64,000 bases of DNA from Patescibacteria group bacterium (GTDB lineage: Bacteria; Patescibacteriota; Patescibacteriia; UBA2591; JAQUPP01), in assembly GCA_028716665.1 (NCBI GenBank), contig JAQUPP010000001.1:128467-192466 (forward strand), written 5' to 3'. Below are positions 33,661 through 62,032 of this stretch, piece by piece. A program made the position numbers and the translations under genes. A model generated the notes under the pieces. That model was given only the letters and a program-made list of their open reading frames with translations, made no database searches and was not told the DNA's origin. The first letter of the stretch is position 1. The number at the start of each line of letters is the position of its first letter.

Positions 33661-34902
33661 TTACTCCGCGTAAATATAACCCAAAATACGCACATCATTA
33701 CGGTTAATTGTTCTCTGGGTGACGCGCCAAGGAGTAGGATGATTCATCTCAGTAAAAGTAATAGTGTCATTGTTAAAAGATTCAACATAAGCAACGTGTC
33801 CCCAACAATAGGAACTTCTTCCACAACAACCGCGGCCGGCCTCACATAAAGAAACAACGGCTCCTTTTTGAGGATCATCTCCAATTTTAAATCCTCGCTG
33901 TCTGGCGTTACCGAGCCAGTCTTTGGCATTACCGCTCCAAGCGACACATTTGCCGAGATCGGTTGCCCATTTATAAGCTACATAAGAAGTACATTGACCG
34001 TTATAAAATTTGTGGCATTTTGTGTTTCTTAACCAAGAATTGTAGTTTGGTGAAGTTGTTACCAATTCTGTTTTTTCAAAACGAGGTTGAACAACTTGAG
34101 GTTTTGGCACTACCGGCGGAGGTGCTGAAGGTTGAGATCCGTAAGGAATAATTAAAATATCATTTGCTAAAATATCAGAAGCATCGGCCAAGCCGTTGAA
34201 ATCAACGATATCATTTATTGACGCTTTATATTTTCTAGCGATTTGATCCAAAGTTTCACCCGATTTGACTTTATGAGTTAAACCGTCGATAGGCAAAATA
34301 GAAAGTGTTTGTCCGGGTCTGATAAGATTTGCCGAACGAAGCGTTAAATTGTTTGCCGCAAGAATGGAAGTGATATTAATGCCGAATTTTTGAGCAATAG
34401 TATAAATAGTATCCCCTGCTTCAATGACATATTTTTCAACCTCTGTTCTGGTGTTTGGCATTGAGTCATTAAATTCTGTCTCAGGAGTAATTAAAGTGCT
34501 GCCGCCCAGGGTTAAAGAAATATCAGAATTTGCCAGCATTCTATTGCCGGCAATATGAAAATCAGCCTCCTTCTTATCGGAAGAGGCTTGATTGTTAAAA
34601 TTATTTTGAGCCTTAACAATAATTTTATCTTGATTGGTAATAGAGGTAATCAAATTTTCATGATTGGAGTTTTCATAAAGATTTTTCATTTCCAAAGATG
34701 AGAAAATAATAAAAAAGGCGATTACCGCCACTAAAGCAAATTCGCCCGTTATTATTTTATCACGGTGTCTAAGGCAAAAATGAGAGATGTAAAGTATTCT
34801 CCCGATAATCGCTTTTCCCAGATTGGCCAAGCCTGATTGAACATTGGACCACAAATTGTTCAGAAAAACCTTAAGATAATTGTTTTCAAGAGGTTTTTTC
34901 AT
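33661..34902 (-). CDS. Membrane-anchored peptidoglycan hydrolase with two LysM domains and a CHAP domain
   Basis: An N-terminal TM segment is followed by two LysM repeats (YVIEAGDTIYTIAQKFG..., HKVKSGETLDQIARKY...) and a C-terminal Cys...His CHAP-like region (GQCTSYVAYKW...GHVAYVE). Confidence 0.7.
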   Translation of the reverse strand: MKKPLENNYLKVFLNNLWSNVQSGLANLGKAIIGRILYISHFCLRHRDKIITGEFALVAVIAFFIIFSSLEMKNLYENSNHENLITSITNQDKIIVKAQNNFNNQASSDKKEADFHIAGNRMLANSDISLTLGGSTLITPETEFNDSMPNTRTEVEKYVIEAGDTIYTIAQKFGINITSILAANNLTLRSANLIRPGQTLSILPIDGLTHKVKSGETLDQIARKYKASINDIVDFNGLADASDILANDILIIPYGSQPSAPPPVVPKPQVVQPRFEKTELVTTSPNYNSWLRNTKCHKFYNGQCTSYVAYKWATDLGKCVAWSGNAKDWLGNARQRGFKIGDDPQKGAVVSLCEAGRGCCGRSSYCWGHVAYVESFNNDTITFTEMNHPTPWRVTQRTINRNDVRILGYIYAE

Positions 34903-42200: not shown

Positions 42201-45200
42201 ATTCCTTCTTTAGCCAAATCTTGTTCTGCGCCGGGTTGCGAAGAATTTACCAATTTAGATGAAGTGGCAAAGGGTGGTGAAGGAATACAATATTATTCTT
42301 ATATTCGAACTTGCCAAAAACCGGATACGCAAACTTGCGGTTATTATTACACTTGGGTTGGTTCAGATACCAATGGTTATCAATTAAAAAAATATTATTT
42401 AACAGCTGGGGCAGGAGGACCGGCAGAAATTGACAGCCCGTCTGCTCAATTCGGAATATGTGATAAAGACCAAATTTTTACTAATCCTCATTGCAAAGAA
42501 TTTTATGACGCGGATGGAAAAGTAAGTTATCGTATTTACGAAAATACTATTACTTGCTCTGATGATTGTCATCCTTTAAGGATAACTATTCCAACTGGTT
42601 TTGACTCAACTAAATGTTCAAATAGCGGCGGGACATGGGATAATGGAAATTGTATTTATCAAACCATTCCTACTGAAAGCGTTTCTTGTAGCAAGGCCAA
42701 TATCGGCTGCCGAGAATATAAAGGCAACGCCGCCAATAATGTTCGCCAAATTTTAAAAAGTGATTTTGAAGACGCGAAGGACCAAGGTTGGAATGGGACG
42801 CCTGTTAATGAATCAGGAGTTTATACGGGTCATTCATTGCAGAGCCCATCATTTATGATTTCTCACTCAGTTTCTTTAACGAGCGAAAAATCTTATATAC
42901 TTTCTTTCTGGGCCAGGGGCAATGGTGACTACTACTCATTTTTTACAAAAGATAAAGAAACTGTTTGGTTTAATAATAAAGATAAAACAACTATTTTTTC
43001 CGATGATTGGCAAGAAATTAAATTGGGGCCAATTTATTCGAACAATCAATTATCTTCTGGTGATTGGGAACTAAATATTAGAGGTCCTAATGGATTTTAT
43101 GTTGACGATATTATTTTAAAAGAAGTTAAAGACGATTTGAATTTAATCAAAGATTCTTGGAAAACAAAAATGCCTGCTGGATGCACTGTCTCGGGTTGCC
43201 AGGCATATAAAGATCAAAACAACAAACTTCAATATCTGACTTCATTTGCTCGTCTTTGTGATGAAAAATCAGTCGGCTGCGAAGCTTTGATTGACACCAA
43301 AAATTCCACTTCGCCGTTTGCTGAAACATTTAAAAATGGAACAACGGTTCCGGACGACAGTCCGATTTATTTGATCAATGATTCCAAAAAATCCTGTCAA
43401 GAAACAAACAAGGGTTGTCAAAGATTCGGTTTGCCGACGCTTTCTTCCGAAGATACGGTAGTTGGTTGGTCTGATTTATATTTAAGAAATAATCCTGATA
43501 ATTATTCTGCCAAGATTCTTTGCGACAGCGCGAATACCGGTTGCGAAGAATATAAAATCAACGGTTCCGGCAGTTCGGTTTATTTCAAAGATCCGGGCGA
43601 AAATCTTTGCGAATGGCGCGAAAAAATAATGGTCGGAGGAGAAAATAAAACAGGTTGGTTCAAAAAGGGAACCAGCCAGCCTTGCTATTACAACACAGAC
43701 AACACTCCATATCAAATCAATGGTCTTTATAGTATTAAAACAAGTGCTGAACCTGATTATAAAAATATAGCCGGAGTTTGTCCTCAAAAACAAACCGGTT
43801 GCACGCAATTTACTGATTTTGGAGCCACGGTTGGCAATAATTTAATTAATGGCGGAGATTTTGAAACCGGAAATTTGGGTCAATGGACACCTGCCTATGG
43901 TTCAGTAGCAAAACCTGATACAATTCAGCTTTTAAGCGGATTTGGTCAACCTGCTAATTTTTTAAGAATTGAAAGCGACGGTTCAAGTCCTCGTTTTGGC
44001 GTAGCTCAATACCCGGAATTTAATGATTTGCCAAGTGGCGCCAGTTTTAATTTTTCGGCTAAAATTAAATTAGATAATAATCTTACTGATGACGTAAAAG
44101 CGACTGTTTATTTGGACTTATTTTATCGGGGCAATAAAGAATTTGACAATCAAGGTTGTATTGTAAAAATTGACGACAAGTCTGTTCCCCGAGATTGTTC
44201 AGATTCGGAAAGCGCAATTGTTCGGACGTGTGCCGACCAAGGGAAAGATAACTGTACTGGTTCTAATGATTTAGAAAAATCTTATGTACAATGTTTAAAA
44301 GATGTTAATTTGGGAAATGTAAATGGTTGGTGTTTTAATTGGGTTTATGGCTATCAGCCGGCTGTCGGTTGGGGAGGAATTGATACAACCAATAAAGATT
44401 GGATAACTTTGAATAAAACAATTGTTGCCGGCGGAAAAGATAATCCTAAAAATTTGCCTTTATATAAAATAATGGTATCCCCTGTTTTAGTCAAAGGAAA
44501 TGGGACTGCGGGAGTTATTGATATCACAAATAGTAGTGTATATGCTGATTTTGATGATATCAGTTTGAAACAAATTCAAAATTATTATTATCTTGATGAC
44601 GACAAGTTGGATCAATCTTCCTGTCAAGGCAATGTTTCACAAAAACAAGATTGCATTCTCTTACTTGATTCAAGTTTAAAAAATGCCGATGGTCAAGTTT
44701 TGGCCACTTATAATACTTTTGCCACTTACAAAAAATCGGAAGCAACTAATCCAAAATACGGATTGGTTTCGCCGGTTGATTGTACAAAAGGAGTACCACA
44801 AACTGGCAAAAGTTGTACAGATGCTGAATATACAAATACAGATTATTGTAAATATTGTTCGTCTTACGGACAAATTAAAAATGACGCGAATACAATTCTT
44901 AAAGTCCGGCAAGATAGAACTTGCGGCGAATGGCTGACTTGCACCAGCTCGCGTTCAGAATGGGATAAAACTAGCGGTTCTTTTAAAGATATTTGTGAAG
45001 CGGTTGGCCGTTGCGACAAATTGATCGGCACTGGAAATGCGAATCAATGCGGTCATCTGATTTGGGAAAATGACCCGAAAGTTTTAGCCGATAATATATA
45101 TCAAAACCGAGATGTTTCTTGGAGCGGGATGGATTACGCCGGCCACTCAATTTACAATATGTACCCGATTGAAAGATTATGGGCCAAGGAATATAACGGT

Positions 45201-47510
45201 GTTTACAGATTAAGTTATCTTGATACAAACGGGAGCGTTTATGGAGTCGATGGAATTAAACTTAAATCGTCGATACAACCAGATAGTGAGATTAATTCAA
45301 CGCAATTGACAAAATCTACTATTGGGAAAACCTGTCGAGCTTATCCGGAAAAAGATTCGCCATTTAAGAGTGACGTGGAAAAATATTATTTTTCCGATGT
45401 TAATGTTTGCAATGATACGAATAATACCGGCGAAAATAAAGATTGCCAATGCAGTTACACTAAAGATGATTATGGCGGAACAACAAAATATTATAATACG
45501 GCGCCGACAACAACGGGAATTTGTGTGAGCAGCAGTGATGGCAAGGAAACAGGAGATACAACTCAGAATATTTGCGTGAGCACTCAAAATGATCATACTC
45601 CGGGAATTTGGAAAACTTTAACCAAACAGACAAACGCGCTTGGTCTGAGAGGTTTTTGTTTGGAACCGGATCCATCAAAACCTGCTGATTTAAATGCTTG
45701 CATTACCTGGTGGCCCGGCGCGGCAATCGGCGACCCGGATATTTATAATCAATTCACTTCTGCCGGCTATCAAGCCGCGAATGAGCGACAATGGTATTGT
45801 GCTAAAAAAATTGAAGTTCCAGTAATAGATTTACAATCAGAGGGTAATTTAACAATGACTTCTCATAACGATTGTAAATCTGGAGAAACATGGAAATGCG
45901 CTTGGCAGAAAGGTAATATATGTAATGATGTGGAATGGTGGCCACATAATTGGAGATCGGATAGTTGTTCAACAAATATAACAGGTATTTATTCTGTTAG
46001 TGAGCTTGATAATTGTAATTTAGATTGTCCCGCTCAAGCGATATTTTCTTTGGGTAATAGCTCATCAAATAGAGTCAAAAATTTAAAGGCGGACATGGTT
46101 GAAAGTATTAATATTAATGTTTGTTCTTGTACCAGCGCTAATGGTGCTGGCGATACGAATACCTGTTCAAGCGGTTCCTGTACAGATATTAGTGGGAATG
46201 ATTCAGGAAGTCTTTGGGGCTGGGATCCTCTGGTATTATCTTTAAATGATTCTAATTCTTGGACATCATCTTACGGTTCGGGGAATGGCGTAAAGATAAT
46301 TGCTAACTGGAAAGAAGATCAAACTTTTGATTCTTTGGTATTAAAAGCAGCAGATGAAAAGAATTTTGGATACTTTAAAATAAATTCAATCACTTTAAAA
46401 ATTAAAAATGATTGTGAACAAGTTGTTAAAATTGCGGATACTGACAGAATGGCCACCGCTTACACTAATCGGGTAAATAATATTAAAAATTATTTTAATG
46501 ATTCTGTGGATGGTAAAACAGAGTTTGAAAATTGTACTCCTTGGGGCGCGGTTAAAAATTGGGATACATCAACAGTTTATATTACAGAATCATCAAATAC
46601 TTGTGAAATAAATAAGGGTGCTTTATATGATTATACGGGCAACATAAAAGACTCTGTTTTTGCTAAAAAACTTTTTGCTCGATCTTTTGATGTCAAAACA
46701 TTTTCTTTGTCTGATTTTCAATATCATACGGGAAGCTTATATACTGTTTTGGATTCTACTAATACTCCTCAAGTGGCGGCCCCAACCTGTGATGAATTAA
46801 CGAATGTTTGTAAAATGGATTCTGAGGGGGCTTCAAATCATATTACTATCGGTAATGTCTATAAAGATGGAGAGAACATTACTCGTGTTCAGTCATATTT
46901 GGCAATTTTGAAATTTTATGCTTGGGCAAATGAAAATCAAATGCCGATCAGGGAAATTTCCATTGATTGGGGAGATAGAGCTGGCGAAGTTAATCCTTAT
47001 TCGGTAATAGCTAAAAATCACAAACAGGCTTGTTGTGAAGGAAGTGGCAGTTGTGCAAATCTCGGAGTTGCATGTAAAGAAGGAATCAATGCCGGCAAAG
47101 CTTGCAATAAAGATTCAGATTGTTTAAAAGAATATGCTTTATGCACAAATAAAAAATGTCAGGCCGGGGTTAATCAAAATCAGGCTTGTGATAAACCAGA
47201 AGATTGTCCGATTTATAGCGAATGTCAAAATATGGTTAATTTAAATTTCGGCAATATTCCTGATGCCTGCACAAATAATTATTTCCAATTTACTCATATT
47301 TATCAATGCGCCGGCGAAGGTTCACCGGGTTGGAATGCCTTTAAGTGTTCCAATACTTGTTGTTTTAAACCTCGCGTTTATGTTCAAGATAATTGGGGTT
47401 GGTGTAATAATGGAAAGGAGAATGTATTAAAATCATCTAATGGTAAATGTAATGGATTGGGGATAGCAGGCACACCATTCGGAGGCTTAATAATTATTAG
47501 ACCGCAATAA
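39288..47510 (+). CDS. Giant (2,740 aa) Cys-rich secreted/anchored surface protein with CBM4/9-like (galactose-binding-like) domains
   Basis: It has a signal/TM N-terminus and more than 100 Cys. Two regions match the CBM pattern (DFEDA..GWNG...; NGGDFETGNLGQWT...). Confidence 0.7.
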   Translation: MAFKFFMKAKKLLNFRILTGAVLLVMFLSIMTPVLFYPKQAQAQMVVHDPLKVIVDKVWEFLKLAWKNGAGIAYKNAINTYTSQIATQTAEWVASGGKGQTPMFIADPDYWVKVGDNMLGEFIDAAAGPKGFFGQSLCDPIDPTLRLNILISFDPLYRQKTWTQENKCSFTKIRQRIKEASQKNLIEFSVDLKEGPVGRYQSSFKSIFEADSKLNEWQTADWPGGDHKTNLKMIADKITSIQKDFSQTVEDLKANKNNTSLIQKENIQADFRNRINNNVWGPDEPPATQYGQYLKFWQKNTSACAAKNKENFCQDLNCYNICSKTDCLGNFTNCLAYTNRANLYVKQLIDWTNQLTGMINKTDFTALTTKEEVTLEDIGRMYSEDNDLRITLSLQSSLMEKQANAVSKSQYFQSLQGRLNDVTTKISGLTKTPSSLVDTAAREAVKNGTASPMQYTGVAVADAIGIFTNTLIDKLLKQIFEKGYNVNVSPEAVRTQPFLSGEGGLITLGSNAGGSLFSDLTVASLKKGGEISIYDEYSVCPQDPKYALPSNCVMDSGMVRALEDNLTLKQAMDKNLIHSDWLVSGRSKKDAATDYLGRYSLTNIKKLRAIRVFPLGLEIAAQKIYDGKLGDAQFTLKDIVDGFDKVSSDGDCRIYIDPTKTPKEGSMEIPCPVWDNDHCYTNVGKTKESFSASPFCHLVDPNWVLKAPSFQCETIAYSAIPLPGSNQRQETCIDMKDCIHEDANGKCDTWGYCTREKNIWRAGGNSCDSQFNTCQTYTKTSDKKSSSYLANTLNFANCSVNDVGCKWYCSDYQKSFGANKADIWACEKPGVSLTCIDRDESGQCTTYGKNGTEQNPTQNAIFFNRNVEKCDKNSEGCHEYIRTATDSKIYLKTAPEWMDCEGDSPSLECSNFATSCEKEDVGCGLYAPINNDPTIPGIVSEGNRCSEKCVGTNYFKEMKTNFETNQPDVLLIPSLAKSCSAPGCEEFTNLDEVAKGGEGIQYYSYIRTCQKPDTQTCGYYYTWVGSDTNGYQLKKYYLTAGAGGPAEIDSPSAQFGICDKDQIFTNPHCKEFYDADGKVSYRIYENTITCSDDCHPLRITIPTGFDSTKCSNSGGTWDNGNCIYQTIPTESVSCSKANIGCREYKGNAANNVRQILKSDFEDAKDQGWNGTPVNESGVYTGHSLQSPSFMISHSVSLTSEKSYILSFWARGNGDYYSFFTKDKETVWFNNKDKTTIFSDDWQEIKLGPIYSNNQLSSGDWELNIRGPNGFYVDDIILKEVKDDLNLIKDSWKTKMPAGCTVSGCQAYKDQNNKLQYLTSFARLCDEKSVGCEALIDTKNSTSPFAETFKNGTTVPDDSPIYLINDSKKSCQETNKGCQRFGLPTLSSEDTVVGWSDLYLRNNPDNYSAKILCDSANTGCEEYKINGSGSSVYFKDPGENLCEWREKIMVGGENKTGWFKKGTSQPCYYNTDNTPYQINGLYSIKTSAEPDYKNIAGVCPQKQTGCTQFTDFGATVGNNLINGGDFETGNLGQWTPAYGSVAKPDTIQLLSGFGQPANFLRIESDGSSPRFGVAQYPEFNDLPSGASFNFSAKIKLDNNLTDDVKATVYLDLFYRGNKEFDNQGCIVKIDDKSVPRDCSDSESAIVRTCADQGKDNCTGSNDLEKSYVQCLKDVNLGNVNGWCFNWVYGYQPAVGWGGIDTTNKDWITLNKTIVAGGKDNPKNLPLYKIMVSPVLVKGNGTAGVIDITNSSVYADFDDISLKQIQNYYYLDDDKLDQSSCQGNVSQKQDCILLLDSSLKNADGQVLATYNTFATYKKSEATNPKYGLVSPVDCTKGVPQTGKSCTDAEYTNTDYCKYCSSYGQIKNDANTILKVRQDRTCGEWLTCTSSRSEWDKTSGSFKDICEAVGRCDKLIGTGNANQCGHLIWENDPKVLADNIYQNRDVSWSGMDYAGHSIYNMYPIERLWAKEYNGVYRLSYLDTNGSVYGVDGIKLKSSIQPDSEINSTQLTKSTIGKTCRAYPEKDSPFKSDVEKYYFSDVNVCNDTNNTGENKDCQCSYTKDDYGGTTKYYNTAPTTTGICVSSSDGKETGDTTQNICVSTQNDHTPGIWKTLTKQTNALGLRGFCLEPDPSKPADLNACITWWPGAAIGDPDIYNQFTSAGYQAANERQWYCAKKIEVPVIDLQSEGNLTMTSHNDCKSGETWKCAWQKGNICNDVEWWPHNWRSDSCSTNITGIYSVSELDNCNLDCPAQAIFSLGNSSSNRVKNLKADMVESININVCSCTSANGAGDTNTCSSGSCTDISGNDSGSLWGWDPLVLSLNDSNSWTSSYGSGNGVKIIANWKEDQTFDSLVLKAADEKNFGYFKINSITLKIKNDCEQVVKIADTDRMATAYTNRVNNIKNYFNDSVDGKTEFENCTPWGAVKNWDTSTVYITESSNTCEINKGALYDYTGNIKDSVFAKKLFARSFDVKTFSLSDFQYHTGSLYTVLDSTNTPQVAAPTCDELTNVCKMDSEGASNHITIGNVYKDGENITRVQSYLAILKFYAWANENQMPIREISIDWGDRAGEVNPYSVIAKNHKQACCEGSGSCANLGVACKEGINAGKACNKDSDCLKEYALCTNKKCQAGVNQNQACDKPEDCPIYSECQNMVNLNFGNIPDACTNNYFQFTHIYQCAGEGSPGWNAFKCSNTCCFKPRVYVQDNWGWCNNGKENVLKSSNGKCNGLGIAGTPFGGLIIIRPQ

Positions 47511-47600: not shown

Positions 47601-48485
47601 TCATTTTAACAAAGTCAATTTTGTAGTTACAGTTTTATTGCCCATCAAGGTTTTTGCAAAATAAATTCCATTAGGTAATTGTTTCCCGGATTCATTTTTC
47701 CCGTTCCATATCCGTTCTTTCAAAATGGTCTTTACTTTTTTACCGCTGATATCGTAAATCGCAATTTGGCCAACGACCGAGGTTCTAAAATGGCAAGAAT
47801 AAGAAAATGGATTTGGAAAGATTTCTAATTTTTCATTTTGATTTTTCCATTTTTCATTTTCCTCAACTCCTTGACTTTCCCCCATCGAATCTAGAAGCAC
47901 TTTATTGTTATTATGATAGGTTTGATAAGCAAGATTATCAAGCTTTCCGCCAAAAGGAAAGTGGGGATTTTCCCCAGTCTCCCACCAAACCTCTAGAATT
48001 AAAATATCAATTCTTGTTGCTCGTAAGCAGCTTGATGCCCCCCAGATTAGAGAGTGGAATTCCATCTCTTGTCTCCAGTCGGTATAACTAGTCCCCCAAA
48101 TATTAGAGCTGGAATAAAGTTTTCCTTCTGAAATCATATAAAATCGGAAACAGACAGAATCTGACAGAACTTTAATATCAGTAAAGAGTTGGGAAGTATC
48201 GCCAATATCCCGATTATATTCTTTTTTAAAATATTCCGCATATCTTCCGGAATCAACCATAAATTGAACAGAATGTTGACTGTTTCTCCACGGGCTATGA
48301 TCATCTGAAACTTTCACTGTTCCATAACTCAAAAGAGCATCAGGTCCAAAATAATCCAGAAATACTGAATCCGCGTTACTTGAATCTACCGGGATCCATC
48401 CATCGACCGGCTGTGTTAGTCCAAAAACCGAACTGAAAAATCCGAACATTAAAACTATAACTAAAATAAATTTTTTAAAGAACAT
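47601..48485 (-). CDS. Secreted protein with a C-terminal domain resembling the T9SS/Por-type (FlgD-Ig-like) sorting tail
   Basis: It has a signal peptide. The last ~75 aa (FPNPFSYSCHFRTSVVGQIAIYDISGKKV...NGIYFAKTLMGNKTVTTKLTLLK) fit the Por_Secre_tail pattern. Confidence 0.45.
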   Translation of the reverse strand: MFFKKFILVIVLMFGFFSSVFGLTQPVDGWIPVDSSNADSVFLDYFGPDALLSYGTVKVSDDHSPWRNSQHSVQFMVDSGRYAEYFKKEYNRDIGDTSQLFTDIKVLSDSVCFRFYMISEGKLYSSSNIWGTSYTDWRQEMEFHSLIWGASSCLRATRIDILILEVWWETGENPHFPFGGKLDNLAYQTYHNNNKVLLDSMGESQGVEENEKWKNQNEKLEIFPNPFSYSCHFRTSVVGQIAIYDISGKKVKTILKERIWNGKNESGKQLPNGIYFAKTLMGNKTVTTKLTLLK

Positions 48486-48582
48486 TTGTCCCCCTTTGAG
48501 TTAAACGTTATTGTCTAACTGTATAATACTCTATCATATTTTTTGCTTTTTGTCAAGATGTTATAATAAGTTAATTTTTATG

Positions 48583-51465
<2,883 letters not shown>

Positions 51466-53398: not shown

Positions 53399-53770
53399 AT
53401 GGAAAATGACAGTGTAAATTTTAAAAATGAATTCAAAAAACGCCTCTATAACTGGGTTTTAAGGTTAATCAAGTTTATAGACAAGCTTCCCAAAGACTCC
53501 GTATGCAATGTCTTGGGAAAACAGCTTCTAAGAAGTGGAACAAGCATTTTGGCAAATTATATTGAGGCAAACTCAGCCAGCTCAAAGAAAGATTTTATCA
53601 ATTTTTTCACTCATTCTTTAAAATCAGCCAATGAATCTAAGGTTTGGCTGACATTATTAAGAGATACTGACAAAGGAGATAAAAATGAATTGCAGTGGTC
53701 ATTAAAAGAACTGATAGAAATAGCCAATATTCTGGCTTCTAGTATTTTAACTCTCAAGGGTAAGAAATAA
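53399..53770 (+). CDS. Four-helix-bundle protein of the 23S-rRNA-IVS / DGR-Avd family
   Basis: Family-like motifs are present (...SILANYIEANSASSKKDFINFF.HSLKSANESKVWL). The length is 123 aa. Confidence 0.6.
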   Translation: MENDSVNFKNEFKKRLYNWVLRLIKFIDKLPKDSVCNVLGKQLLRSGTSILANYIEANSASSKKDFINFFTHSLKSANESKVWLTLLRDTDKGDKNELQWSLKELIEIANILASSILTLKGKK

Positions 53771-53828: not shown

Positions 53829-54260
53829 ATGCAATTCATCGTTCCACAATTTATTGATATTGAACCGAAAATAATCGGGCAGATTACGCCACGGCAATTT
53901 TTGACTATTATTATCACGACTATCACTATTGGTGTTTGCTATAAATTATTTGATTTTGCTTTATTCATTTTGGTCGCGATTATCACCGCGTCAGTGGGAG
54001 TATCTCTCGCCTTTTTGAAAGTTAATGGCCGGCCGATATATTATTTTCTCGTAAATGTTTTTCAAACTTTTCGCAGGCCCAAAATAAGAGTTTGGCGCAA
54101 AGAATTTATTAGAATTGTTGAAAAAAATTTCAGAGATAAAGAAAAAACAGCCAGAACAATGCAGGAATTTGTTCCCCGTCCCCCGCTTTCTTCCACTCGG
54201 CTTTCTCAAGTTGCCCTATTGGTTGATACGGGAGGGAAATATACCGAAGACAATGAATAA
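53829..54260 (+). CDS. Small two-TM membrane protein, candidate VirB3-like
   Basis: It is 143 aa long with a hydrophobic hairpin, and it lies immediately upstream of the VirB4-like ATPase. Confidence 0.3.
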   Translation: MQFIVPQFIDIEPKIIGQITPRQFLTIIITTITIGVCYKLFDFALFILVAIITASVGVSLAFLKVNGRPIYYFLVNVFQTFRRPKIRVWRKEFIRIVEKNFRDKEKTARTMQEFVPRPPLSSTRLSQVALLVDTGGKYTEDNE

Positions 54261-54331: not shown

Positions 54332-54997
54332 ATGAATAATCAAAAACCTCAATTTCCTTCAACGCAAAAATATTTAAACATTTCCGAAATAAGAAATGAT
54401 TGCGTTATTTTGCAAGACGGCACTTTAAGGGCTGTTCTTTTGGTTTCTTCAATTAATTTTTCCTTGAAATCAGAAGAAGAGCAAAATGCCGTGATTCAAG
54501 CTTATGTTCAATTTTTAAATTCTTTGGATTTTCCGATTCAAATCGTTATTCAATCCAGGCCGTTTAACATCAATCCTTATTTGACTCAATTGGAAGAATT
54601 AAAAAGAACCCAAACCAATGATTTGTTAAAAGCGCAAATGGCTGATTATATTGATTTCACCAGAGAATTAATCCAAATGGGCGAAATAATGAGTAAACGT
54701 TTTTATATAGTGGTGCCTTACAATCCTTTAGGCGACAAAAAACGAAGTTTCGCGTCCATTATGACTGATGTTTTAAGCGCTGCTTCGGTTGTTAAGCTTA
54801 AAAGAGAAAAATTTGAAAAATACAGAGAAATTCTTTTCAGGAGAATGGATAACGTTTTGTCAAATCTTTCAAGTATGGGCATTAAAGCAATATCACTCGA
54901 CACTCAAAGTTTGATTGAACTTTTCTATAATACTTATAATCCATCCAGCGCTCAGAATCAAAAATTAGTTGAAATAAAAGATTTAAGAGTTGAATAG
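54332..54997 (+). CDS. N-terminal domain of a VirB4-like ATPase, encoded as a separate ORF
   Basis: The pattern CVILQDGTLRAVLLVSSINFSLKSEEEQNAVIQAYVQFLNSL.FPIQIVIQSRP is typical of Gram-positive-type VirB4 N-termini. It is separated from the ATPase core by a cassette remnant. Confidence 0.4.
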   Translation: MNNQKPQFPSTQKYLNISEIRNDCVILQDGTLRAVLLVSSINFSLKSEEEQNAVIQAYVQFLNSLDFPIQIVIQSRPFNINPYLTQLEELKRTQTNDLLKAQMADYIDFTRELIQMGEIMSKRFYIVVPYNPLGDKKRSFASIMTDVLSAASVVKLKREKFEKYREILFRRMDNVLSNLSSMGIKAISLDTQSLIELFYNTYNPSSAQNQKLVEIKDLRVE

Positions 54998-55117: not shown

Positions 55118-57076
55118 TTGATATTTACATTTTCTATTATGCCAATACGACCATCGGCTTTAAACGAGCCAACAACAATTGAAAAAGTCCAAAGTCCGCA
55201 AGAAATAAAAATTCGAGAAACCAAAAGAGATACAGAGGCGAAAGAGATTTTGAAATCCGAAGAGGCCTATCAAAGAGGGACTATCACCGTCAGAGACTTG
55301 GTTGCTCCGGCGGCTTTAAGAGTAGACGCGAAATATTTGCAATTGGGTGATCAATATTTAAGAACCATTTTTGTCACCACCTTTCCCCGTTATGTTATGG
55401 TGGGTTGGTTTTCACCGATAATTCATCTTAACGCACCTTTGGATATTGCGATGTTTTTCTATCCGGTTGAGAGTAAAGAAGTTTTAAAACAATTATTAAA
55501 GAAGGTTGGTAATTTGGAAGTCGAGATTCAAGCTGATCGGGAAAAAACATTGCCACGAGACCCGGTTAAAGAAACCGCGTTGCAAGACATTGAAAAATTA
55601 AGAGATGATTTAACTACCGGGACTGAACATTTTTTCCAACTTGCTTTATATGTGACTATTTATGCCAATGATTTAAAAGCGTTGGATCTTCTGACCGAAA
55701 GAGTGGAAACGATATTTGGCGGTAAAATGGTTTATACTCGCCGTGTTCTTTATCAATCCGAACAAGGATTTAACTCCACTTTGCCTTTGGCTAACGATGA
55801 AATAATGACTACGGTCAATATGAGCTCCTCTCCTTGCGCTTCAAGTTTTCCTTTTATTTCCGCAGATCTTACTTCGGATAGCGGCGTGCTTTATGGGATT
55901 AACCGTCATAATAACAGTTTGATTTTATTCGACAGATTTTCCATGCCGAATGCGAACTTCACTGTTTTTGCCACCAGCGGTAGCGGTAAAAGTTATTTTG
56001 CCAAATTGGAAGTTTTGCGTTCTTTAATGCTTGGCACTGACGTGATTATTATTGATCCGGAAAGAGAATATAAGCATCTTTGCGATGCAGTGGGCGGAAC
56101 TTATGTTAATATTTCTCTAACTTCAGAAAGTAAAATCAATCCTTTTGATTTGCCGCGTTCATCAAGTCAGGATGTAAAAACCGGTGATTTGATTCGTTCC
56201 GCGGTTATTACTTTGAAAGGATTATTGAAAATTTGTATTGGCAAACCGGATGAAAAGGGGAATCTCAGTTTTACGCCGGAAGAAGATTCATTGATTGATC
56301 GCGCTTTAATTGAATCCTACGCTAAAAAAGATATTGTTCCGGGTTGCGATTTAAGTCAGATGGAAATGCCGATTATGGGTGATTTGCAGGAAATTTTGGA
56401 AGGAATGGAAGGCGGCAATAATTTAGCCGAGCGTCTTAAAAAATATACTCAAGGAACGTTCAGTGGATTTTTAAATAACCCGACCAATGTTCAAATGGAT
56501 AATAAATTGGTGATTTTTTCCGTCAGGGATTTGGAAGACGAATTAAGACCGATGGCCATTTATACGATTGTGAATTATATTTGGAATGTTGTCCGTTCGC
56601 AAATGAAAAAAAGAATTTTAATGATTGATGAAGCTTGGTGGCTGCTGCAATATGAAGATTCGGCGAAATTCATTTATGCTTTGGTGAAACGCTGCCGCAA
56701 ATATTATCTGGGCGTGACCACCATCAGTCAAGATGTGGCGGATTTCTTGAATTCTCCTTATGGAAAAGCCATTGTTACCAACTCGGCCATGCAATTGCTT
56801 TTAAAACAATCTCCGGCTGCCATTGACTTGATCGCCAAGACTTTTATGTTGACTGAAGGAGAAAAATATTTATTACTTGAATGTGGTGTTGGCGACGGCA
56901 TATTCTTCGCCGGCAATAAACACGCGGCGATTAAAGTGGTTGCTTCTTACTCGGAAGATCAGTTAATCACTTCTGATCCGCGCCAAATTTTGGAAATTGA
57001 ACAAGCCAAAAGAGATTTTGATAAAAGTTTAGATAAGGGCTCGTCAGAAAGTATCGGCGATATGCCCATTGAATAA
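55118..57076 (+). CDS. VirB4/TraC/TrbE-like conjugation-type ATPase core
   Basis: Walker A FATSGSGKSYFAK, Walker B ILMIDEAWWLL and the C-terminal KYYLGVTTISQDVAD are present. The length is 652 aa. Confidence 0.7.
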   Translation: MIFTFSIMPIRPSALNEPTTIEKVQSPQEIKIRETKRDTEAKEILKSEEAYQRGTITVRDLVAPAALRVDAKYLQLGDQYLRTIFVTTFPRYVMVGWFSPIIHLNAPLDIAMFFYPVESKEVLKQLLKKVGNLEVEIQADREKTLPRDPVKETALQDIEKLRDDLTTGTEHFFQLALYVTIYANDLKALDLLTERVETIFGGKMVYTRRVLYQSEQGFNSTLPLANDEIMTTVNMSSSPCASSFPFISADLTSDSGVLYGINRHNNSLILFDRFSMPNANFTVFATSGSGKSYFAKLEVLRSLMLGTDVIIIDPEREYKHLCDAVGGTYVNISLTSESKINPFDLPRSSSQDVKTGDLIRSAVITLKGLLKICIGKPDEKGNLSFTPEEDSLIDRALIESYAKKDIVPGCDLSQMEMPIMGDLQEILEGMEGGNNLAERLKKYTQGTFSGFLNNPTNVQMDNKLVIFSVRDLEDELRPMAIYTIVNYIWNVVRSQMKKRILMIDEAWWLLQYEDSAKFIYALVKRCRKYYLGVTTISQDVADFLNSPYGKAIVTNSAMQLLLKQSPAAIDLIAKTFMLTEGEKYLLLECGVGDGIFFAGNKHAAIKVVASYSEDQLITSDPRQILEIEQAKRDFDKSLDKGSSESIGDMPIE

Positions 57077-57090
57077 AATATTTTAATCAT

Positions 57091-57651
57091 ATGAAAAAAG
57101 TTATATTAATTATTGTTATTTTAGTTTTAATCGGCGGCACGGTTTGGTTTTTGATGTCAAAAAAAAGCCAACCAATTTTGGAAAATAAAAATATTATAAA
57201 TCAATTGGTTGATCAAGAAAACACGGTTAACCAAAATCAGGTTGAAACAGAAACATTGGTTCCAACTGCGGAAGATTTATTAAAAATAGATTTAACAAAT
57301 CAGGCACGGTCTTTTATTGAACGTTATGGGAGTTACTCTACGGACAGTAATTATGAAAATTTGCAAGAATTATTGCCGAAAATGGCTCAGCCGCTTAGAA
57401 CAGAAACAGAATCAAGAATTCAAAAAGGAGTGAAAAAAGACATGGCTGTTAATGATTTTTTCGGGCTGACTACTAAAATAATTTCCATCAATTTGGATAA
57501 ATTCGTCCCGGATTCGCAAGCGATTTTTACCGCGGAAATTCAAGAGCAAGCCGCGCGCTTAGGTCAAACAGATATTTTATATAAAACAGTAAAATTGACT
57601 TTTATAAAATCAGCCGATGAATGGAAAGTGGGAGAGATAGAGATTCATTAA
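57091..57651 (+). CDS. Bitopic membrane protein, possible VirB8-like (NTF2-like) component
   Basis: An N-terminal TM segment is followed by a ~150-aa periplasmic domain. The call rests on architecture only. Confidence 0.3.
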   Translation: MKKVILIIVILVLIGGTVWFLMSKKSQPILENKNIINQLVDQENTVNQNQVETETLVPTAEDLLKIDLTNQARSFIERYGSYSTDSNYENLQELLPKMAQPLRTETESRIQKGVKKDMAVNDFFGLTTKIISINLDKFVPDSQAIFTAEIQEQAARLGQTDILYKTVKLTFIKSADEWKVGEIEIH

Positions 57652-57748: not shown

Positions 57749-58204
57749 ATGGTTAGTGATATTGAAGAACAAGAAACAGAACAATCAATCGCCGTGAGAT
57801 TAAAAGCGGAAAGAGCCGAGGATGTGGTGAAATCAGATGATTCGGGAACGTCTTTCACCGGGAAAACCAAAGAATTGAAAGATGCGGCTCAGCGCCTTAA
57901 AACTGTTTATCGGATAATTAACGGAGCTTCGGCGATAACCGTAGTTGGTTTGATTGTCACCTTTCTATTGATGAATGCTCAATTGATTTTCGGTAATTTA
58001 TTAAAAGTCAAATTTGTGCCGGCTTTGGAAATATGGGAAATTATTATTTTGGGTATTATTGATGTCATTATTTTAACTGTCTTATTTTGTTTAATAGTGC
58101 TTTCAACCATCAGCGTAGTGGCCATCACTGATCCCGGGGAACTTTTTAAACTGCTATGGAGTAGTGGTTTGCAAATAATTAAAAACGCATTTTCACCATC
58201 GTAA
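57749..58204 (+). CDS. Three-TM membrane protein (hypothetical)
   Basis: It is 151 aa long, with an acidic N-terminus followed by three hydrophobic helices. Confidence 0.4.
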   Translation: MVSDIEEQETEQSIAVRLKAERAEDVVKSDDSGTSFTGKTKELKDAAQRLKTVYRIINGASAITVVGLIVTFLLMNAQLIFGNLLKVKFVPALEIWEIIILGIIDVIILTVLFCLIVLSTISVVAITDPGELFKLLWSSGLQIIKNAFSPS

Positions 58205-58221
58205 AAAATAATTTTATTTAA

Positions 58222-59493
58222 ATGACAATTAAAAATAAAAAAACTTATTTACTTATTTACTTATCAGCTTATTTGCTTATCAGTTTATTCGCGGCTGATT
58301 TTGCTTTGGCTCAGATTAAATTTCAACCTCAAGTAAGTCTTCCCGGCTTTATGAATGTCGGCGACATAAAAAATATTAGCGGCACGACTTTGGGTGAATT
58401 TATTATTGCTTTTTATAAATGGTCTATTGGCACAATCGCTTTTTTGGCTGTGGTGATGATTATGATTGCCGGTTTTCGCTGGATGACTGCGGCTGGCAGC
58501 GCGCCTCAAATTACACAAGCCAAAGATCGGATTAATTCCGCTTTGATCGGTTTGATTTTGGCCATTGGCGCTTACAGTTTATTGAGTTTTCTGAATCCCG
58601 CTTTAGTCAGATTCAAAAATTTGAATATTACAAATATTAATAATATAGAATTGGGGATAACTTGGTGCAGGGATATTTATAATAATAGTTTAATGAATCA
58701 TTTACCTGAAGAAAATGTGGTTGAATACGGTCAAGTTAATATTGATAAAACTATTAATGGAAAAACTCAATTAATTGGACAAGTTTTGGACAAACCATGT
58801 GCTCAAAGATTCCAGGTTGTTCAAGAAGAAAATGGTGTTTGGAAAGCGGCCGGTAATTCTTGTTGGACAGATTTTTGCGAAGGGGATAACAGTTGCTATA
58901 GACAGTCATCGGATAATAGTTTTATTTGCACAGATCCTATAAAATTATGTGAAGGAAAGCCGAGTACCAGTGATGCGACTTGCGCGCTTTATTTGAAAGA
59001 CGTAGGATGGGGCACTTTATATGACAAAAGTCGGCATGTTTGCGCTTATGAACCAAAGGGTTTAAATAATTGTATTCTCGATACTTTATTCAACTGTCCA
59101 AATCCCAAAGAGGGTGATAAAAAATATGAGCGGGTCAATTGCTCTGCTTCTAAAGACGCAGCAAACAATAGCGCGTGTTGGCTAAAAGGCGATGAAAAAC
59201 CTCAAGTTACTGAAGGCAAAAGATGCGCCGATGTCGATAAAACCCCTCAACCAACCTGGAGTAAAGATGGAATTTGTTGTCATGAAGTAGGAACGCTTTT
59301 TAACGACTCAAAAAATTATGTAATGTGTTACACTATTCAACCCAAGCAACTCAGATGTGAAAAATATTCATGGGACGCGCTGCCAGGGAAAAAAAGGGAA
59401 ATTATATTCTCAAGTTCTTGCGCAGAGGGTGAACAACCAGGGGTTAATATAAGCGGCGATTGTAACACAGCTTGGACTTGGTTTCGTCCTTAA
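58222..59493 (+). CDS. Secreted protein with a VirB2/TrbC-like pilin hairpin fused to a ~280-aa Cys-rich C-terminal domain
   Basis: A signal peptide is followed by YKWSIGTIAFLAVVMIMIAGFRWMTAAGS...AKDRINSALIGLILAIGAYSLL (compare VirB2 ...AVLGIVAIGISWMFGRAS...) and then at least 24 Cys. Confidence 0.45.
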   Translation: MTIKNKKTYLLIYLSAYLLISLFAADFALAQIKFQPQVSLPGFMNVGDIKNISGTTLGEFIIAFYKWSIGTIAFLAVVMIMIAGFRWMTAAGSAPQITQAKDRINSALIGLILAIGAYSLLSFLNPALVRFKNLNITNINNIELGITWCRDIYNNSLMNHLPEENVVEYGQVNIDKTINGKTQLIGQVLDKPCAQRFQVVQEENGVWKAAGNSCWTDFCEGDNSCYRQSSDNSFICTDPIKLCEGKPSTSDATCALYLKDVGWGTLYDKSRHVCAYEPKGLNNCILDTLFNCPNPKEGDKKYERVNCSASKDAANNSACWLKGDEKPQVTEGKRCADVDKTPQPTWSKDGICCHEVGTLFNDSKNYVMCYTIQPKQLRCEKYSWDALPGKKREIIFSSSCAEGEQPGVNISGDCNTAWTWFRP

Positions 59494-59509
59494 AGAGTAA
59501 AGTTAATTT

Positions 59510-60808
59510 TTGAAATTTTTTGTTAATATGAATAAAAAAGCCTTAATTATATTTTTAGTGGCAGTGATAATTTTAGCCGGATTGGTTTGGTTTGTCTTTT
59601 TTCGTCAAAAACCGGTTGTTGTTCAGCCAACTCCTGAGCAACCGATTACGGAGCAGCCGGCTCGATTGCCGGTAACTAGAAGTCAGTGGGAAGGGATGAC
59701 CATTGAAGAACGGGGACGCTTAGGTCTGCCTATTTCGGAATGGCCGGCAGAAGAAACAATAACTCCCGAAACTCCCGTGGCGCCGGAAAAAATAACTCCG
59801 GAAATTGATGAAGTGGCTTCCGGCAGCAGAACATGGATTAATACTATTTCTGATGACCAGGTTCAAAATGCAACTTTAGCCGGTGACGGACAGAGTAATA
59901 TTTATTACGATAAAACAGGCGGGCATTTTTATAAAATAGATAATTTGGGCAATAAAGAATTATTGACTGATCAAGTTTTTTATAATGTGGATAATATCAA
60001 TTGGGCCCCGACCAAAGACAGAGCGATTTTGGAATACCCGGACGGATTTAAAGTGATGTATGATTTTGATCAAAAAAAACAATATACTTTGCCAAAAAAT
60101 TGGGAAAATTTTTCTTGGGATTCGTCAGGTTCTCATTTTGCGTTTGAATCAACCAGTCAATATCCGGAAAATAATTGGTTGGCTACCAGTCGGGCCGACG
60201 GCAGTGAAGCAAAACCGATTGAACATATCGGAAACAATGCTGACAAAGTAACGGTTTCTTGGTCGCCGAATAATCAAGTTGTCGCTTTCTCGGCTACCGG
60301 AGATCCGCGAGGCGCTTGGGAACAGGAAATATTATTAATCGGCCAAAATGGCGAAAATTTTAAATCTTTGGTTATTGACGGCCGCGGTTTTGAATCGAAA
60401 TGGTCTCCAGTCGGCGACAAAATTGTTTACAGTGTTTACAGTTCTGATTCAAACTATCAACCCAAACTTTATATAGTGGATGCTCAAGGAGATGCAATCG
60501 GTAGCGGTAAAATAGATTTAAATTTGGCTACATGGGCCAATAAATGTTCATTTAATAATAATGGCAATACTCTTTATTGCGCTGTTCCTAAAAGTTTACC
60601 TGAAGGATCAGGATTAATACCTGATTTAGCCGCTAATACTCGTGATGATTTTTATAAGATAGATGTGGCCACCGGTCAAATTTCATTCTTGGCTGAAGGA
60701 GCAATGGGCGGATATAATGTAGGTGATATTTATTTATCAAGTGATGACAGTATGCTGTATTTTATTGACAAAGACACCAGTCATTTAAGATCAATCAGGC
60801 TAAAATAA
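59510..60808 (+). CDS. Membrane-anchored PD40/TolB-like beta-propeller protein with a Pro-rich linker
   Basis: An N-terminal TM segment and a PxxP linker are followed by repeated W(S/A)P...(A/V)(F/Y)S blades. Confidence 0.5.
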   Translation: MKFFVNMNKKALIIFLVAVIILAGLVWFVFFRQKPVVVQPTPEQPITEQPARLPVTRSQWEGMTIEERGRLGLPISEWPAEETITPETPVAPEKITPEIDEVASGSRTWINTISDDQVQNATLAGDGQSNIYYDKTGGHFYKIDNLGNKELLTDQVFYNVDNINWAPTKDRAILEYPDGFKVMYDFDQKKQYTLPKNWENFSWDSSGSHFAFESTSQYPENNWLATSRADGSEAKPIEHIGNNADKVTVSWSPNNQVVAFSATGDPRGAWEQEILLIGQNGENFKSLVIDGRGFESKWSPVGDKIVYSVYSSDSNYQPKLYIVDAQGDAIGSGKIDLNLATWANKCSFNNNGNTLYCAVPKSLPEGSGLIPDLAANTRDDFYKIDVATGQISFLAEGAMGGYNVGDIYLSSDDSMLYFIDKDTSHLRSIRLK

Positions 60809-60847
60809 GTAAATAGGCAAATAAGCTAACTAAGTAAATAAGTTGAA

Positions 60848-62032
60848 ATGAAAATTCAAAATTCCAAATTCAAAATTCCAAATTCTTTACTTATAATCGC
60901 CTTAATGGCGTTTTTTTGGTTTTGGGCCGGTCAGCAAGTTTCGGCTGCCTGTATCCCGCTTGGCGGAACAGATCAGCGCCCGGAAGGTTGTAATGGCAAT
61001 CCTTGTTGTCCCGGTTCTAATTGCCAAGCCACGCCACTTTTTGGAGATTCTCAAGGTTCGAACACAATGTTTCAAATTAATTGTTGGAATATTAGTGAAG
61101 GCGTAATGCCTATTACCGGTATAGAAACTGACACTCAAGAATCAAAATCAATAATTGCTCCGCAATTGCAAGTTCAAATTCCAGGTTTTCAAGGATTTAC
61201 CACTGATGAAAGTAAAATCGTGACTGAGCAAAATGGCAAAAAAAGTTATTCCTTTCCATGGATTGGCGAATATCTTATAGCTCTTTATAAATGGGCGATC
61301 AGATTAATCGCCGCTTTGGCCGTGGTGATGATTATGTGGGCCGGGGTGGAATGGATGATTGCCGGAGGCAATAGCAGTCGGATTTCCGATGCCAAAGGAA
61401 GAATCACTGGTGCTTTATTCGGGCTGGTTTTATTATTAGGCATTAATACTTTTTTAAATTTTATAAATCCGCAGTTAACTTTTTTCAAGCCGATTCATCT
61501 GGGAGAAATTGCAAAAATTGAGCTTGATGCAGAAGAAATAGATTATCCGATTGTTTTGGAAGGACAGACAGACTCGGATTGGTGGAGATTTAACCCGGGA
61601 ATTACCAAACAAATACCTGATATGTCGCCCCAATTAGCCAGTTTTACAGATTGTCTTGGTAAAAAAATCGTTGGTTCGGATAATAAACCAAAAGCGGTAA
61701 TTACCAGTATTTCCGATGATGCAGGCGTGGAAAGATGTAGAAATGCCTGGCAAAAAAAGGATTGTCGAGAAGAAAATGATCCTAATTGTTATTCTTGTCA
61801 TCATACTAAAAATTCTTGTCATTATGGAGGCAAGGAGTGTCCAGCTCAATCTTATGCCATAGATATTGGTATAACCACCAGTCCTTCGCCAACGGAAATA
61901 ATCAACGCGATTAAAGAGTGTAACCCGAACGCTTATATTTGTTATACTCCTTATAATAACTGCCCGGGTCATACAAATCATATTCATACCAGTATTGGTT
62001 GGGACTCCGGTTGTAAATGCGATAAAAAATAA
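60848..62032 (+). CDS. Paralogous secreted protein: Cys-rich N-terminal region, VirB2/TrbC-like hairpin, Cys-rich C-terminal domain
   Basis: YKWAIRLIAALAVVMIMWAGVEWMIAGGNSSRISDAKGRITGALFGLVLLLG aligns with the 58222 protein. Confidence 0.45.
   Translation: MKIQNSKFKIPNSLLIIALMAFFWFWAGQQVSAACIPLGGTDQRPEGCNGNPCCPGSNCQATPLFGDSQGSNTMFQINCWNISEGVMPITGIETDTQESKSIIAPQLQVQIPGFQGFTTDESKIVTEQNGKKSYSFPWIGEYLIALYKWAIRLIAALAVVMIMWAGVEWMIAGGNSSRISDAKGRITGALFGLVLLLGINTFLNFINPQLTFFKPIHLGEIAKIELDAEEIDYPIVLEGQTDSDWWRFNPGITKQIPDMSPQLASFTDCLGKKIVGSDNKPKAVITSISDDAGVERCRNAWQKKDCREENDPNCYSCHHTKNSCHYGGKECPAQSYAIDIGITTSPSPTEIINAIKECNPNAYICYTPYNNCPGHTNHIHTSIGWDSGCKCDKK
60852..60886 (+). repeat. Heptanucleotide tract (AAATTCA/AAATTCC)x4 plus AAATTCT, starting 2 nt after the start codon of the pilin-like gene
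   Basis: Five tandem 7-nt units are seen directly. Confidence 0.7.

Follow-up and report, generated by a model that had tools for sequence, protein, structure and literature searches.

The chromosomal type IV secretion system (T4SS) locus of an ultrasmall bacterium of the Patescibacteria group (GTDB lineage Patescibacteriota; Patescibacteriia; UBA2591; JAQUPP01) encodes two proteins, denoted here P1 and P2, in which a VirB2-like two-helix hairpin is combined with large outer domains that are replaced, as sharply bounded cassettes with fixed boundaries, between closely related loci. Both genes lie within positions 58222-62032 of a 64,000-nucleotide (nt) stretch of DNA (hereafter, the window; assembly GCA_028716665.1, contig JAQUPP010000001.1, positions 128,467-192,466 of the forward strand). 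On balance, we favour the view that P1 and P2 belong to an MPF-FATA-like T4SS as modular VirB2-like proteins, with P2 probably displaying a cell wall hydrolase and P1 a variable binding domain. Viewed this way, the outer domains look like exchangeable surface tools at the point of contact with the host.

Three genes, all on the + strand, occupy the span: P1 (58222-59493; 423 amino acids, aa), a membrane-anchored TolB/PD40-like beta-propeller protein of 432 aa with weak TolB and PD40 matches (59510-60808) and P2 (60848-62032; 394 aa). The original prediction, a reading of this DNA made from the sequence alone, had described two pilin-like genes here; both are present and complete where it placed them, but the unrelated beta-propeller gene sits between the two. 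P1 has an NCBI entry, 'MAG: pilin [Patescibacteria group bacterium]' (MAG, metagenome-assembled genome). P1 consists of a signal-peptide-like segment (residues 1-30; 58222-58311), a conserved module (residues 32-136; 58315-58629) and a variable, orphan Cys-rich outer-domain cassette (residues 137-423; 58630-59490). P2 is built around a corresponding conserved module (residues 100-225; 61145-61522), which is preceded by a signal peptide and a small, variable Cys-rich N-terminal domain (residues 34-99; 60947-61144) and followed by a C-terminal cassette (residues 226-394; 61523-62029) in what we refer to below as the enzyme slot. Each conserved module comprises a short motif (KFQPQVSLPGF in P1, PQLQVQIPGF in P2), a first transmembrane helix (TM1), a short polar, basic loop (AAGSAPQITQAKDR in P1, AGGNSSRISDAKGR in P2), a second helix (TM2) and a linker (NPALVRFKNL and NPQLTFFKPI, respectively). 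Hydropathy places the two hydrophobic helices at residues 60-92 and 103-129 of P1 and at 142-174 and 185-208 of P2. The leaders, read from the sequence, are of the Sec type: MTIKNKK...FALA followed by the putative cleavage point and Q in P1, with hydrophobic 19-mers at residues 9-32, and MKIQNSK...QVSA followed by A in P2. The sequence motifs originally singled out are largely in place (AGFRWM and AGVEWM; AKDRI and AKGRI), except that FLNP occurs in P1 only, P2 having FINP instead.

The modules of P1 and P2 are 44% identical over 124 aa (E 2e-26), and nothing aligns between the two proteins outside this region. The term paralogs, which had been applied to the pair, is hence apt for the hairpin module and not for the remainder, the C-terminal domains being mutually dissimilar. 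Moreover, the module makes up only ~105-125 aa of each protein, and neither has the size of a minimal major pilin. The domain sizes first reported, 250-300 aa with more than 20 Cys each, do not hold: P1 has 20 Cys (residues 149-414), all within its C-terminal 275 residues, and P2 has 18, of which 6 are N-terminal (residues 35-79) and 12 C-terminal, in domains of ~285 aa (P1 C-terminal), ~65-100 aa (P2 N-terminal) and ~170 aa (P2 C-terminal). Nevertheless, the enrichment in Cys is real and selective. Cys accounts for 4.7% of P1, 4.6% of P2 and 4.3% of a giant 2740-aa protein encoded in the same locus, compared to ~1% in other open reading frames (ORFs). That Cys-richness might be a general trait of exported proteins is ruled out by the beta-propeller protein, the neighbouring protein p186 and other exported ORFs, which contain 0-0.5% Cys.

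Profile comparisons identify the hairpin as a VirB2-like module, as had been proposed. Both proteins pass the gathering threshold of the Pfam family PF18895 (T4SS_pilin; 26.6 bits), P1 with 28.0 bits (residues 55-124) and P2 with 34.0 bits (residues 141-206), and nearly all of the 71 positions of the profile are covered in each; 20 of the 25 scanned relatives are above this threshold and 5 are below it. Judging from hydropathy and sequence reading, P1 and P2 also share with PF18895 pilins the succession of a leader and two hydrophobic helices separated by a short polar loop, and P1 yields a sub-threshold match to the NCBIfam family 'Mbov_0395 family pilin-like conjugal transfer protein'. A comparison with PF04956 (TrbC/VirB2; threshold 27.9 bits), which the original prediction had put forward as its check, came out divided: neither P1 nor P2 is matched at E<=0.1, but four homologues (P0009, L011, L013 and L018) are matched weakly, at a sub-threshold 15-17 bits, each time in the same hairpin region. 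When a profile of 25 hairpins was compared by hhalign with an alignment of 8 annotated VirB2/TrbC proteins from plasmids, the score was 23.7 (P 0.0013) over 40 in-register columns, with an HH probability of only 18%. The end of TM1 (...LAVLGIVAIGISWMFGR versus ...LAVVMIMWAGVEWMIAGG) is aligned in register, followed by the loop, which is ~7 residues longer in the hairpins than in VirB2, and then by TM2. None of 300 shuffled controls, 150 with full column shuffling and 150 shuffled within 22-column blocks, reached 23.7, the maximum being 20.8. These scores give modest support for a profile-profile homology to VirB2, one that goes beyond composition and hydrophobic layout. A PDB sequence-profile search with the hairpin profile was empty, as was the search with full-length P2; a two-helix hairpin is a non-specific query for any fold search. 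In the AlphaFold2 model of full-length P2 (8 sequences), which is poor as a whole (predicted local distance difference test score, pLDDT, 43.6), two long helices are predicted at residues 137-171 and 176-206 with pLDDT ~70.

The most direct evidence for modularity comes from comparison with related loci. Pattern scans of public genomes and metagenomes recovered 15 loci with the hairpin module and, where the DNA is long enough, the gene order is VirB4, p186, p151, P1-type, beta-propeller, P2-type, RadA. L005 and L007, the closest of these loci, have a backbone with 84-90% nt identity to that of the window, and the encoded proteins are 97% (VirB4), 94-95% (RadA) and 86-92% (beta-propeller) identical. 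Within P1, the conserved module retains 74-75% nt identity to L005, L007 and L014, but similarity stops at 58623-58645 and restarts only at 59506-59527, beyond the end of the gene; the cassette itself has no nt similarity to the syntenic loci. The P1-type proteins are identical through NPALVRFK(N/S)L and unrelated beyond it. In P2, two such replacements flank the module: the signal peptide is similar (to 60957), similarity to L005 is lost at 60958-61143, regained from 61144 to 61521-61534 and lost again until radA (62036), the conserved module in between showing 83-86% nt identity to L005, L006 and L007. Because similarity breaks at fixed points, the outer domains can be considered exchangeable cassettes located between two conserved recombination shoulders. 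Silent cassette copies were not found elsewhere in the window. A foreign origin of the cassettes was rejected, since their GC content is the same as that of the backbone. We also rejected derivation from a phage lysis module, given the conserved T4SS synteny and zero relatives in 2.9 million viral contigs.

The domains that occupy the P2 slot in relatives are, by their family matches, hydrolases. VanY/M15 domains were recognized in P0001, P0002/L005, P0003/L007 and L009 (up to 25.3 bits versus a cutoff of 25), Peptidase_C39_2 in P0004/L006 (1.7e-10) and, by BLAST, in L008, an SLT domain in P0006 (1.7e-14), a 3D domain, just under threshold, in P0005 and Amidase_2 in L017 (2.5e-16). Four of the five recognizable types are peptidoglycan hydrolases and the fifth is a papain-like peptidase. 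In L015, a single 710-aa protein combines Peptidase_M15_4, which occupies the N-terminal slot of P2, with the hairpin and Amidase_2 (2.9e-14 and 2.3e-16). L004 contains two tandem hairpin-fusion genes with an identical hairpin and different C-terminal domains, one P2-like and the other SLT-like (ES...GLYQI motif). The latter contig (CAZWCK010000141.1; 1950 bp) is binned in an 'Oscillospiraceae' MAG and is probably a mis-binned fragment of Patescibacteria.

The C-terminal domain of the window's own P2 is probably a divergent LAS/M15-like enzyme. Motifs conserved in P2, P0007 and the L004 ORF include the helix SP.L..F..CL, V(I/L)TSISD, C.H.K.SCHYG, (Y/H)A(I/V)D(I/L) and H(I/F)H(A/T)S. In P2, they occur in the order typical of LAS enzymes, SxHxxG...AxD...HxH (SCHYGG...SYAIDI...NHIHTS), with a non-canonical His-Asp spacing and no Arg. 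An AlphaFold2 model of the domain shows the succession a1-b1-a2-b2-a3-b3-b4 at low confidence (pLDDT 58, pTM 0.64), and the motifs, together with the order of secondary-structure elements, can be matched to three features of LAS/M15 enzymes: the SxxR strand, the zinc site (S-x-H-x-x-G...A-x-D) and the terminal His strand. Assignment of this domain as a divergent LAS-type zinc peptidase is, in our view, probable but unproven. A metagenome scan with a pattern from the P2 C-terminal domain returned nothing, and word-indexed homologue searches with the C-terminal domains of P1 and P2 retrieved P1 itself only, full-length P2 not being present in that database. The P2 gene is cut by the contig end in the public assembly (L001), hence the lack of a full-length database entry.

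The P1 slot is hypervariable. Nine P1-type domains fall into at least seven groups that are not linked by BLAST and range from 120 to 285 aa with 6-28 Cys; no Pfam, PHROGs or PDB match was obtained for any of them. When 1.84 billion representatives were searched exhaustively by HMMER with the outer domain of the window's P1, the only hits were the query and P0009, a relative at 35% identity whose architecture is the same and whose Cys pattern is largely conserved. Most P1-type domains (window, L005, L007, L010, L011, L012 and L014) carry a '(D/K)-x-I-C-C' motif 20-70 residues before the C-terminus, which could represent a common terminal sub-domain or a processing/recognition element.

Several lines of reasoning suggest that these domains are exposed. 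A signal peptide followed by two transmembrane helices would leave both the N-terminus and the C-terminus outside, whether or not the peptide is cleaved, and the peptidoglycan enzymes on either side of the hairpin in L015 imply that both flanks are located beyond the membrane. For P1 and P2, we infer an inside loop and two outside flanks. L015 additionally encodes, directly upstream of its P2-type gene, a DsbA/Thioredoxin_4-like protein (904-1551, + strand; 6.5e-16). MdbA/VKOR-type oxidoreductases are reportedly enriched in bacteria of the candidate phyla radiation (CPR; bioRxiv 10.1101/335083), and the DsbA-like gene of L015 fits this machinery, which is consistent with disulfides formed outside the cytoplasm and with outer domains that are probably stabilized by them. 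The original prediction had hinged on profile similarity of the hairpin and on an extracytoplasmic location of the Cys-rich domains, and on neither count was it contradicted: the PF18895 matches and the hhalign score speak for the former, and the predicted topology, the L015 enzymes and the DsbA-like neighbour for the latter.

The scenario that we consider the likeliest can be outlined as follows. The Sec pathway would insert the conserved module, that is, the signal peptide, the 'LQVQIPGF' motif, the two-helix pilin-like hairpin and the 'NPxLxxFKxI' linker, such that the short basic loop is cytoplasmic and the flanks are outside the cell. Through this module, each protein would be attached to the T4SS, sitting in the membrane next to the channel or contributing a minor subunit to a short stalk or pilus, and the outer domains would serve as disulfide-stabilized, exchangeable cassettes. 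The P2 slot would hold a cell wall hydrolase, in the window probably the divergent LAS/M15-type zinc peptidase, and could supply the VirB1-like wall-cutting activity that is otherwise apparently missing from Patescibacteria T4SS loci; P2 may cut the host wall at the contact site. In the P1 slot, the Cys-rich domain is hypervariable; it most likely recognizes a surface ligand and could thereby confer host or strain specificity. Because enzymes of different bond specificities interchange between strains with ~95% identical neighbours, the target appears to be variable, most plausibly the host envelope at the contact site and not the wall of the cell itself. The earlier image of an adhesin on a pilin does not suit P2, given the wall hydrolases in the same slot of relatives, and for P1 it would be a matter of binding suggested by hypervariability.

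Several observations weigh against this reading. The topology was derived from hydropathy and sequence reading, and P1 and P2 are known here as genes. No function is assignable to the P1 domain, and hypervariability and predicted exposure are what suggest 'binding'. In the P2 slot, C39-like peptidases need not be wall hydrolases, and the P2 C-terminal domain has no significant Pfam, NCBIfam, PHROGs or PDB sequence-profile match. By hhalign, it gave no significant alignment to VanY or M15_4 domains from relatives; locally, SYAIDI versus GHAIDV matched best. The putative His-Asp spacing is 12-14 residues, compared to the canonical 6 (H-x6-D), and the Arg of SxxR is absent. The structural model of the domain is of low confidence, and generic alpha/beta sandwiches rank above LAS enzymes. 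Finally, wall hydrolases are not in short supply in this cell: a gene with two LysM domains and a CHAP peptidoglycan hydrolase domain is located 24 kb upstream.

The alternative that survives best, though we regard it as doubtful, is that P1 and P2 are true pilus subunits that VirB4 extracts and polymerizes, producing a filament with hydrolases and binding domains on its surface (a 'catalytic or adhesive pilus'). In solved conjugative pili (F, T), the pilin exposes its two ends on the outer surface and turns its loop towards the lumen. The same orientation would put N-terminal and C-terminal fusions on the pilus surface, and the homology of the hairpin to VirB2 is in line with such a role. Furthermore, the locus holds no other pilin candidate: the hairpin module was found in no other ORF of the window, and the locus lacks a short stand-alone pilin. 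Pilin arrays of Patescibacteria T4SS are essential, and the existence of a pilus has been speculated on in reviews (PMC10633639, PMC12857230). However, the same lack of a short major pilin leaves nothing to dilute the bulky subunits and, by a geometric estimate, a VirB2-type helical lattice would become crowded if every subunit carried 170-290 aa of extra domain. The loop is ~7 residues longer than that of VirB2, the PF04956 threshold is not reached and no filament has been reported for such proteins. A bolder version, in which a T4SS filament or stalk of VirB2-like subunits, each with a functional head (wall-cutting enzymes or hypervariable binding domains), acts as a host-specific drilling and docking tool, is similarly tentative. 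If true, swapping of cassettes between strains at the two fixed hot spots would alter the range of host envelopes that can be attached to and opened, and the missing recognizable VirB1 in most Patescibacteria T4SS loci would be explained.

We consider it unlikely that P1 and P2 are housekeeping assembly factors only, with the hairpin as a mere anchor and P2 cutting the cell's own wall during T4SS assembly, in the manner of PrgK, TraG (pIP501), CwlT and VirB1, without any role at the host interface. In Gram-positive bacteria, T4SS loci do include genes for wall hydrolases that are anchored in the membrane, frequently have two domains and are required for transfer (refs 72-76 in PMC12102498), and the two-enzyme protein of L015 resembles them; a recognizable VirB1 is missing from most Patescibacteria T4SS loci (PMC12102498). 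Yet amidase, DD/LD-peptidase, lytic transglycosylase and cysteine peptidase interchange where VirB4 and RadA are 95-97% identical, which is hard to reconcile with an unchanging own wall, and the hypervariable, non-enzymatic P1 slot is left unexplained. Least credible, and in our estimate very improbable, is that P1 and P2 are polymorphic effectors or toxins in which the N-terminal, pilin-like part serves delivery or trafficking and the C-terminal domain is cleaved near NPxLxxFK and released or injected to damage a competitor or host, in the manner of Rhs/CdiA-type toxins or of the peptidoglycan hydrolase effectors used by bacteria-killing T4SS and T6SS: the constant N-terminal part followed, in near-identical backbones, by C-terminal cassettes that are non-homologous and sharply bounded, the predominance of wall hydrolases among the cassettes and the strongly conserved linker motif immediately before the breakpoint are all compatible with this idea, but neither cassette is followed by a co-varying immunity gene (the downstream beta-propeller and radA products are conserved at 86-92% and 94-95% aa identity, respectively), the window contains no silent cassette array, there is no sign of cleavage, and the Sec-type signal peptides of P1 and P2 are unlike T4SS substrates, which normally start in the cytoplasm.

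Modular VirB2-like proteins with exchangeable outer domains, the reading preferred here, also accord with the genomic neighbourhood. The locus is a chromosomal T4SS of the Gram-positive type, flanked by leuS/ksgA and radA, in which Pfam and NCBIfam scans detected neither a relaxase nor a coupling protein. Pfam and NCBIfam matches on the + strand identify a PrgI/VirB3-like protein (53829-54260), a 221-aa TrsD-like/VirB4 N-terminal protein (54332-54997) and a 652-aa VirB4 ATPase (55118-57076; NCBIfam CD1110 family, 2.2e-102, above cutoff), which are followed, as the T4SS genes directly upstream of P1, by those for the TM-anchored p186 (57091-57651, + strand) and the membrane protein p151 (57749-58204, + strand). 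The distance from the end of VirB4 to the start of P1 is 1.1 kb, and the upstream T4SS gene order is kept in L005, L007, L010 and L017. The division of VirB4 function between the TrsD-like protein and the ATPase agrees with the separate TrsD reported for Patescibacteria and for MPF-FATA systems. The beta-propeller protein has a Pro-rich linker, is conserved at 86-92% aa identity in L005, L007 and L014 and is always encoded between the P1-type and P2-type genes, and it is probably a fixed structural partner of P1 and P2. Overall, the locus matches the published picture of Patescibacteria T4SS, which are chromosomal, related to the monoderm MPF-FATA class and usually without relaxase, with VirB2-like pilins often encoded in arrays of 2-11 divergent genes and a recognizable VirB1 usually absent (PMC12102498).

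Further upstream, a polytopic protein of 984 aa (48511-51465, + strand) is a VirB6-like candidate by virtue of several hydrophobic segments and a weak match to the NCBIfam conjugal transfer family MMCAP2_0566 (E 0.0019, below cutoff). It has a proline-rich tail, with a run of 15 prolines and a long low-complexity stretch rich in Pro, Ser and Gly, and a charged domain follows at the C-terminus. The first gene of the locus is that of the giant exported protein of 2740 aa with 118 Cys (39288-47510, + strand), for which a weak match to the carbohydrate-binding domain CBM_4_9 (E 0.0033) is the sole family signal. It has no similarity to the P1 and P2 cassettes and may serve the same apparatus as a giant adhesin. 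Between these two genes, a 294-aa ORF on the opposite strand (47601-48485, - strand) matches Por_Secre_tail, the C-terminal sorting domain of type IX secretion, with 30.1 bits versus a cutoff of 27, which is unexpected for a genome of monoderm Patescibacteria. A gene for a '23S rRNA-intervening sequence protein' of the four-helix-bundle type (53399-53770, + strand; PF05635, 3e-18) is located among the T4SS genes, just upstream of the PrgI-like gene. The LysM (two copies) and CHAP peptidoglycan hydrolase gene mentioned above (33661-34902, - strand), ~24 kb upstream of P1, is outside the T4SS locus.

Ca. Southlakia epibionticum, the one genetically tractable Patescibacterium, cannot live as an epibiont without its T4SS and pilin array (PMC10633639; reviewed in PMC12857230). 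Some of the 'pilins' of such systems carry wall hydrolases or hypervariable surface domains, which makes them a concrete candidate for the missing wall-breaching function. P1 and P2 offer two defined loci whose variation could be set against host range in metagenomes, and both the enzymes and the topology are testable. The comparisons establish the pilin-like module, its T4SS setting, the bounded replacement of cassettes and the hydrolases of the P2 slot in relatives; the topology, the disulfides, the enzyme class of the window's P2 domain, the wall-cutting role of P2, the binding role of P1 and the identity of the target wall are inferred. The PF18895 pilin family is already known. As far as we could find, its modular build, its fusion to hydrolases and the exchange of cassettes between strains are undescribed in the searchable literature; PMC12102498, PMC10633639 and PMC12857230 treat these proteins as pilins, and fusions of pilin-like proteins to other domains are mentioned neither there nor in a searched supplementary table.

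The closest known proteins are the PF18895 pilins of Patescibacteria, such as those of Ca. Southlakia epibionticum and Ca. Nanosynbacter lyticus, which belong to the same Pfam family above threshold, have a signal peptide and a two-helix hairpin and are encoded adjacent to virB4 in a chromosomal T4SS locus without relaxase. P1 and P2 differ from them in their size of 394-423 aa, in the disulfide-rich outer domains of 170-290 aa that we predict, in the exchange of cassettes among close strains and in the wall hydrolases of the P2 slot. With TrbC/VirB2 pilins (PF04956; for example, Agrobacterium VirB2), they have in common a long leader, two hydrophobic helices, a short polar or basic loop and a predicted outward orientation of both termini. 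They are distinguished from these by the lack of a PF04956 match at threshold, a loop that is ~7 residues longer, large fused domains on one or both sides, no signals of cyclization or C-terminal trimming and a monoderm encoding organism.

The wall hydrolases PrgK (pCF10), TraG (pIP501), CwlT (ICEBs1), TcpG (pCW3) and VirB1 resemble P2-type proteins in being encoded by T4SS loci and membrane-anchored, with a predicted catalytic domain outside, and PrgK, TraG, CwlT and TcpG sometimes combine two different wall-cutting domains in one protein, as does L015. In the present case, however, the anchor is a VirB2-like hairpin rather than a single N-terminal helix, the P2-slot domains are different (VanY/M15, Amidase_2, 3D and C39-like domains, besides SLT) and swapped among strains, and the P2 domain of the window matches no SLT, CHAP or NlpC/P60 model. 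In polymorphic toxins (Rhs, CdiA-CT), too, the N-terminal region is conserved among close strains while the C-terminal domains are non-homologous and sharply delimited. P1 and P2 differ from them in their Sec signal peptide and membrane hairpin, with neither an adjacent co-varying immunity gene nor an orphan cassette array in the window.

In design, the nearest parallel is offered by the modular type IV pilins PilB and PilC of Streptococcus sanguinis, in which a bulky functional module is grafted onto a pilin module (PMC8179133). The shared principle is a conserved pilin module that displays an adhesin, a lectin or an enzyme, and the parallel is one of analogy only: the streptococcal proteins belong to unrelated type 4 filaments with a class III signal peptide and a prepilin peptidase, whereas P1 and P2 lack these features, have no match to type 4 pilin families in Pfam or NCBIfam and appear to belong to the VirB2 lineage. 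With P1 and P2, the idea of the 'modular pilin' extends beyond type 4 pili to the VirB2 lineage, which is unrelated to them.

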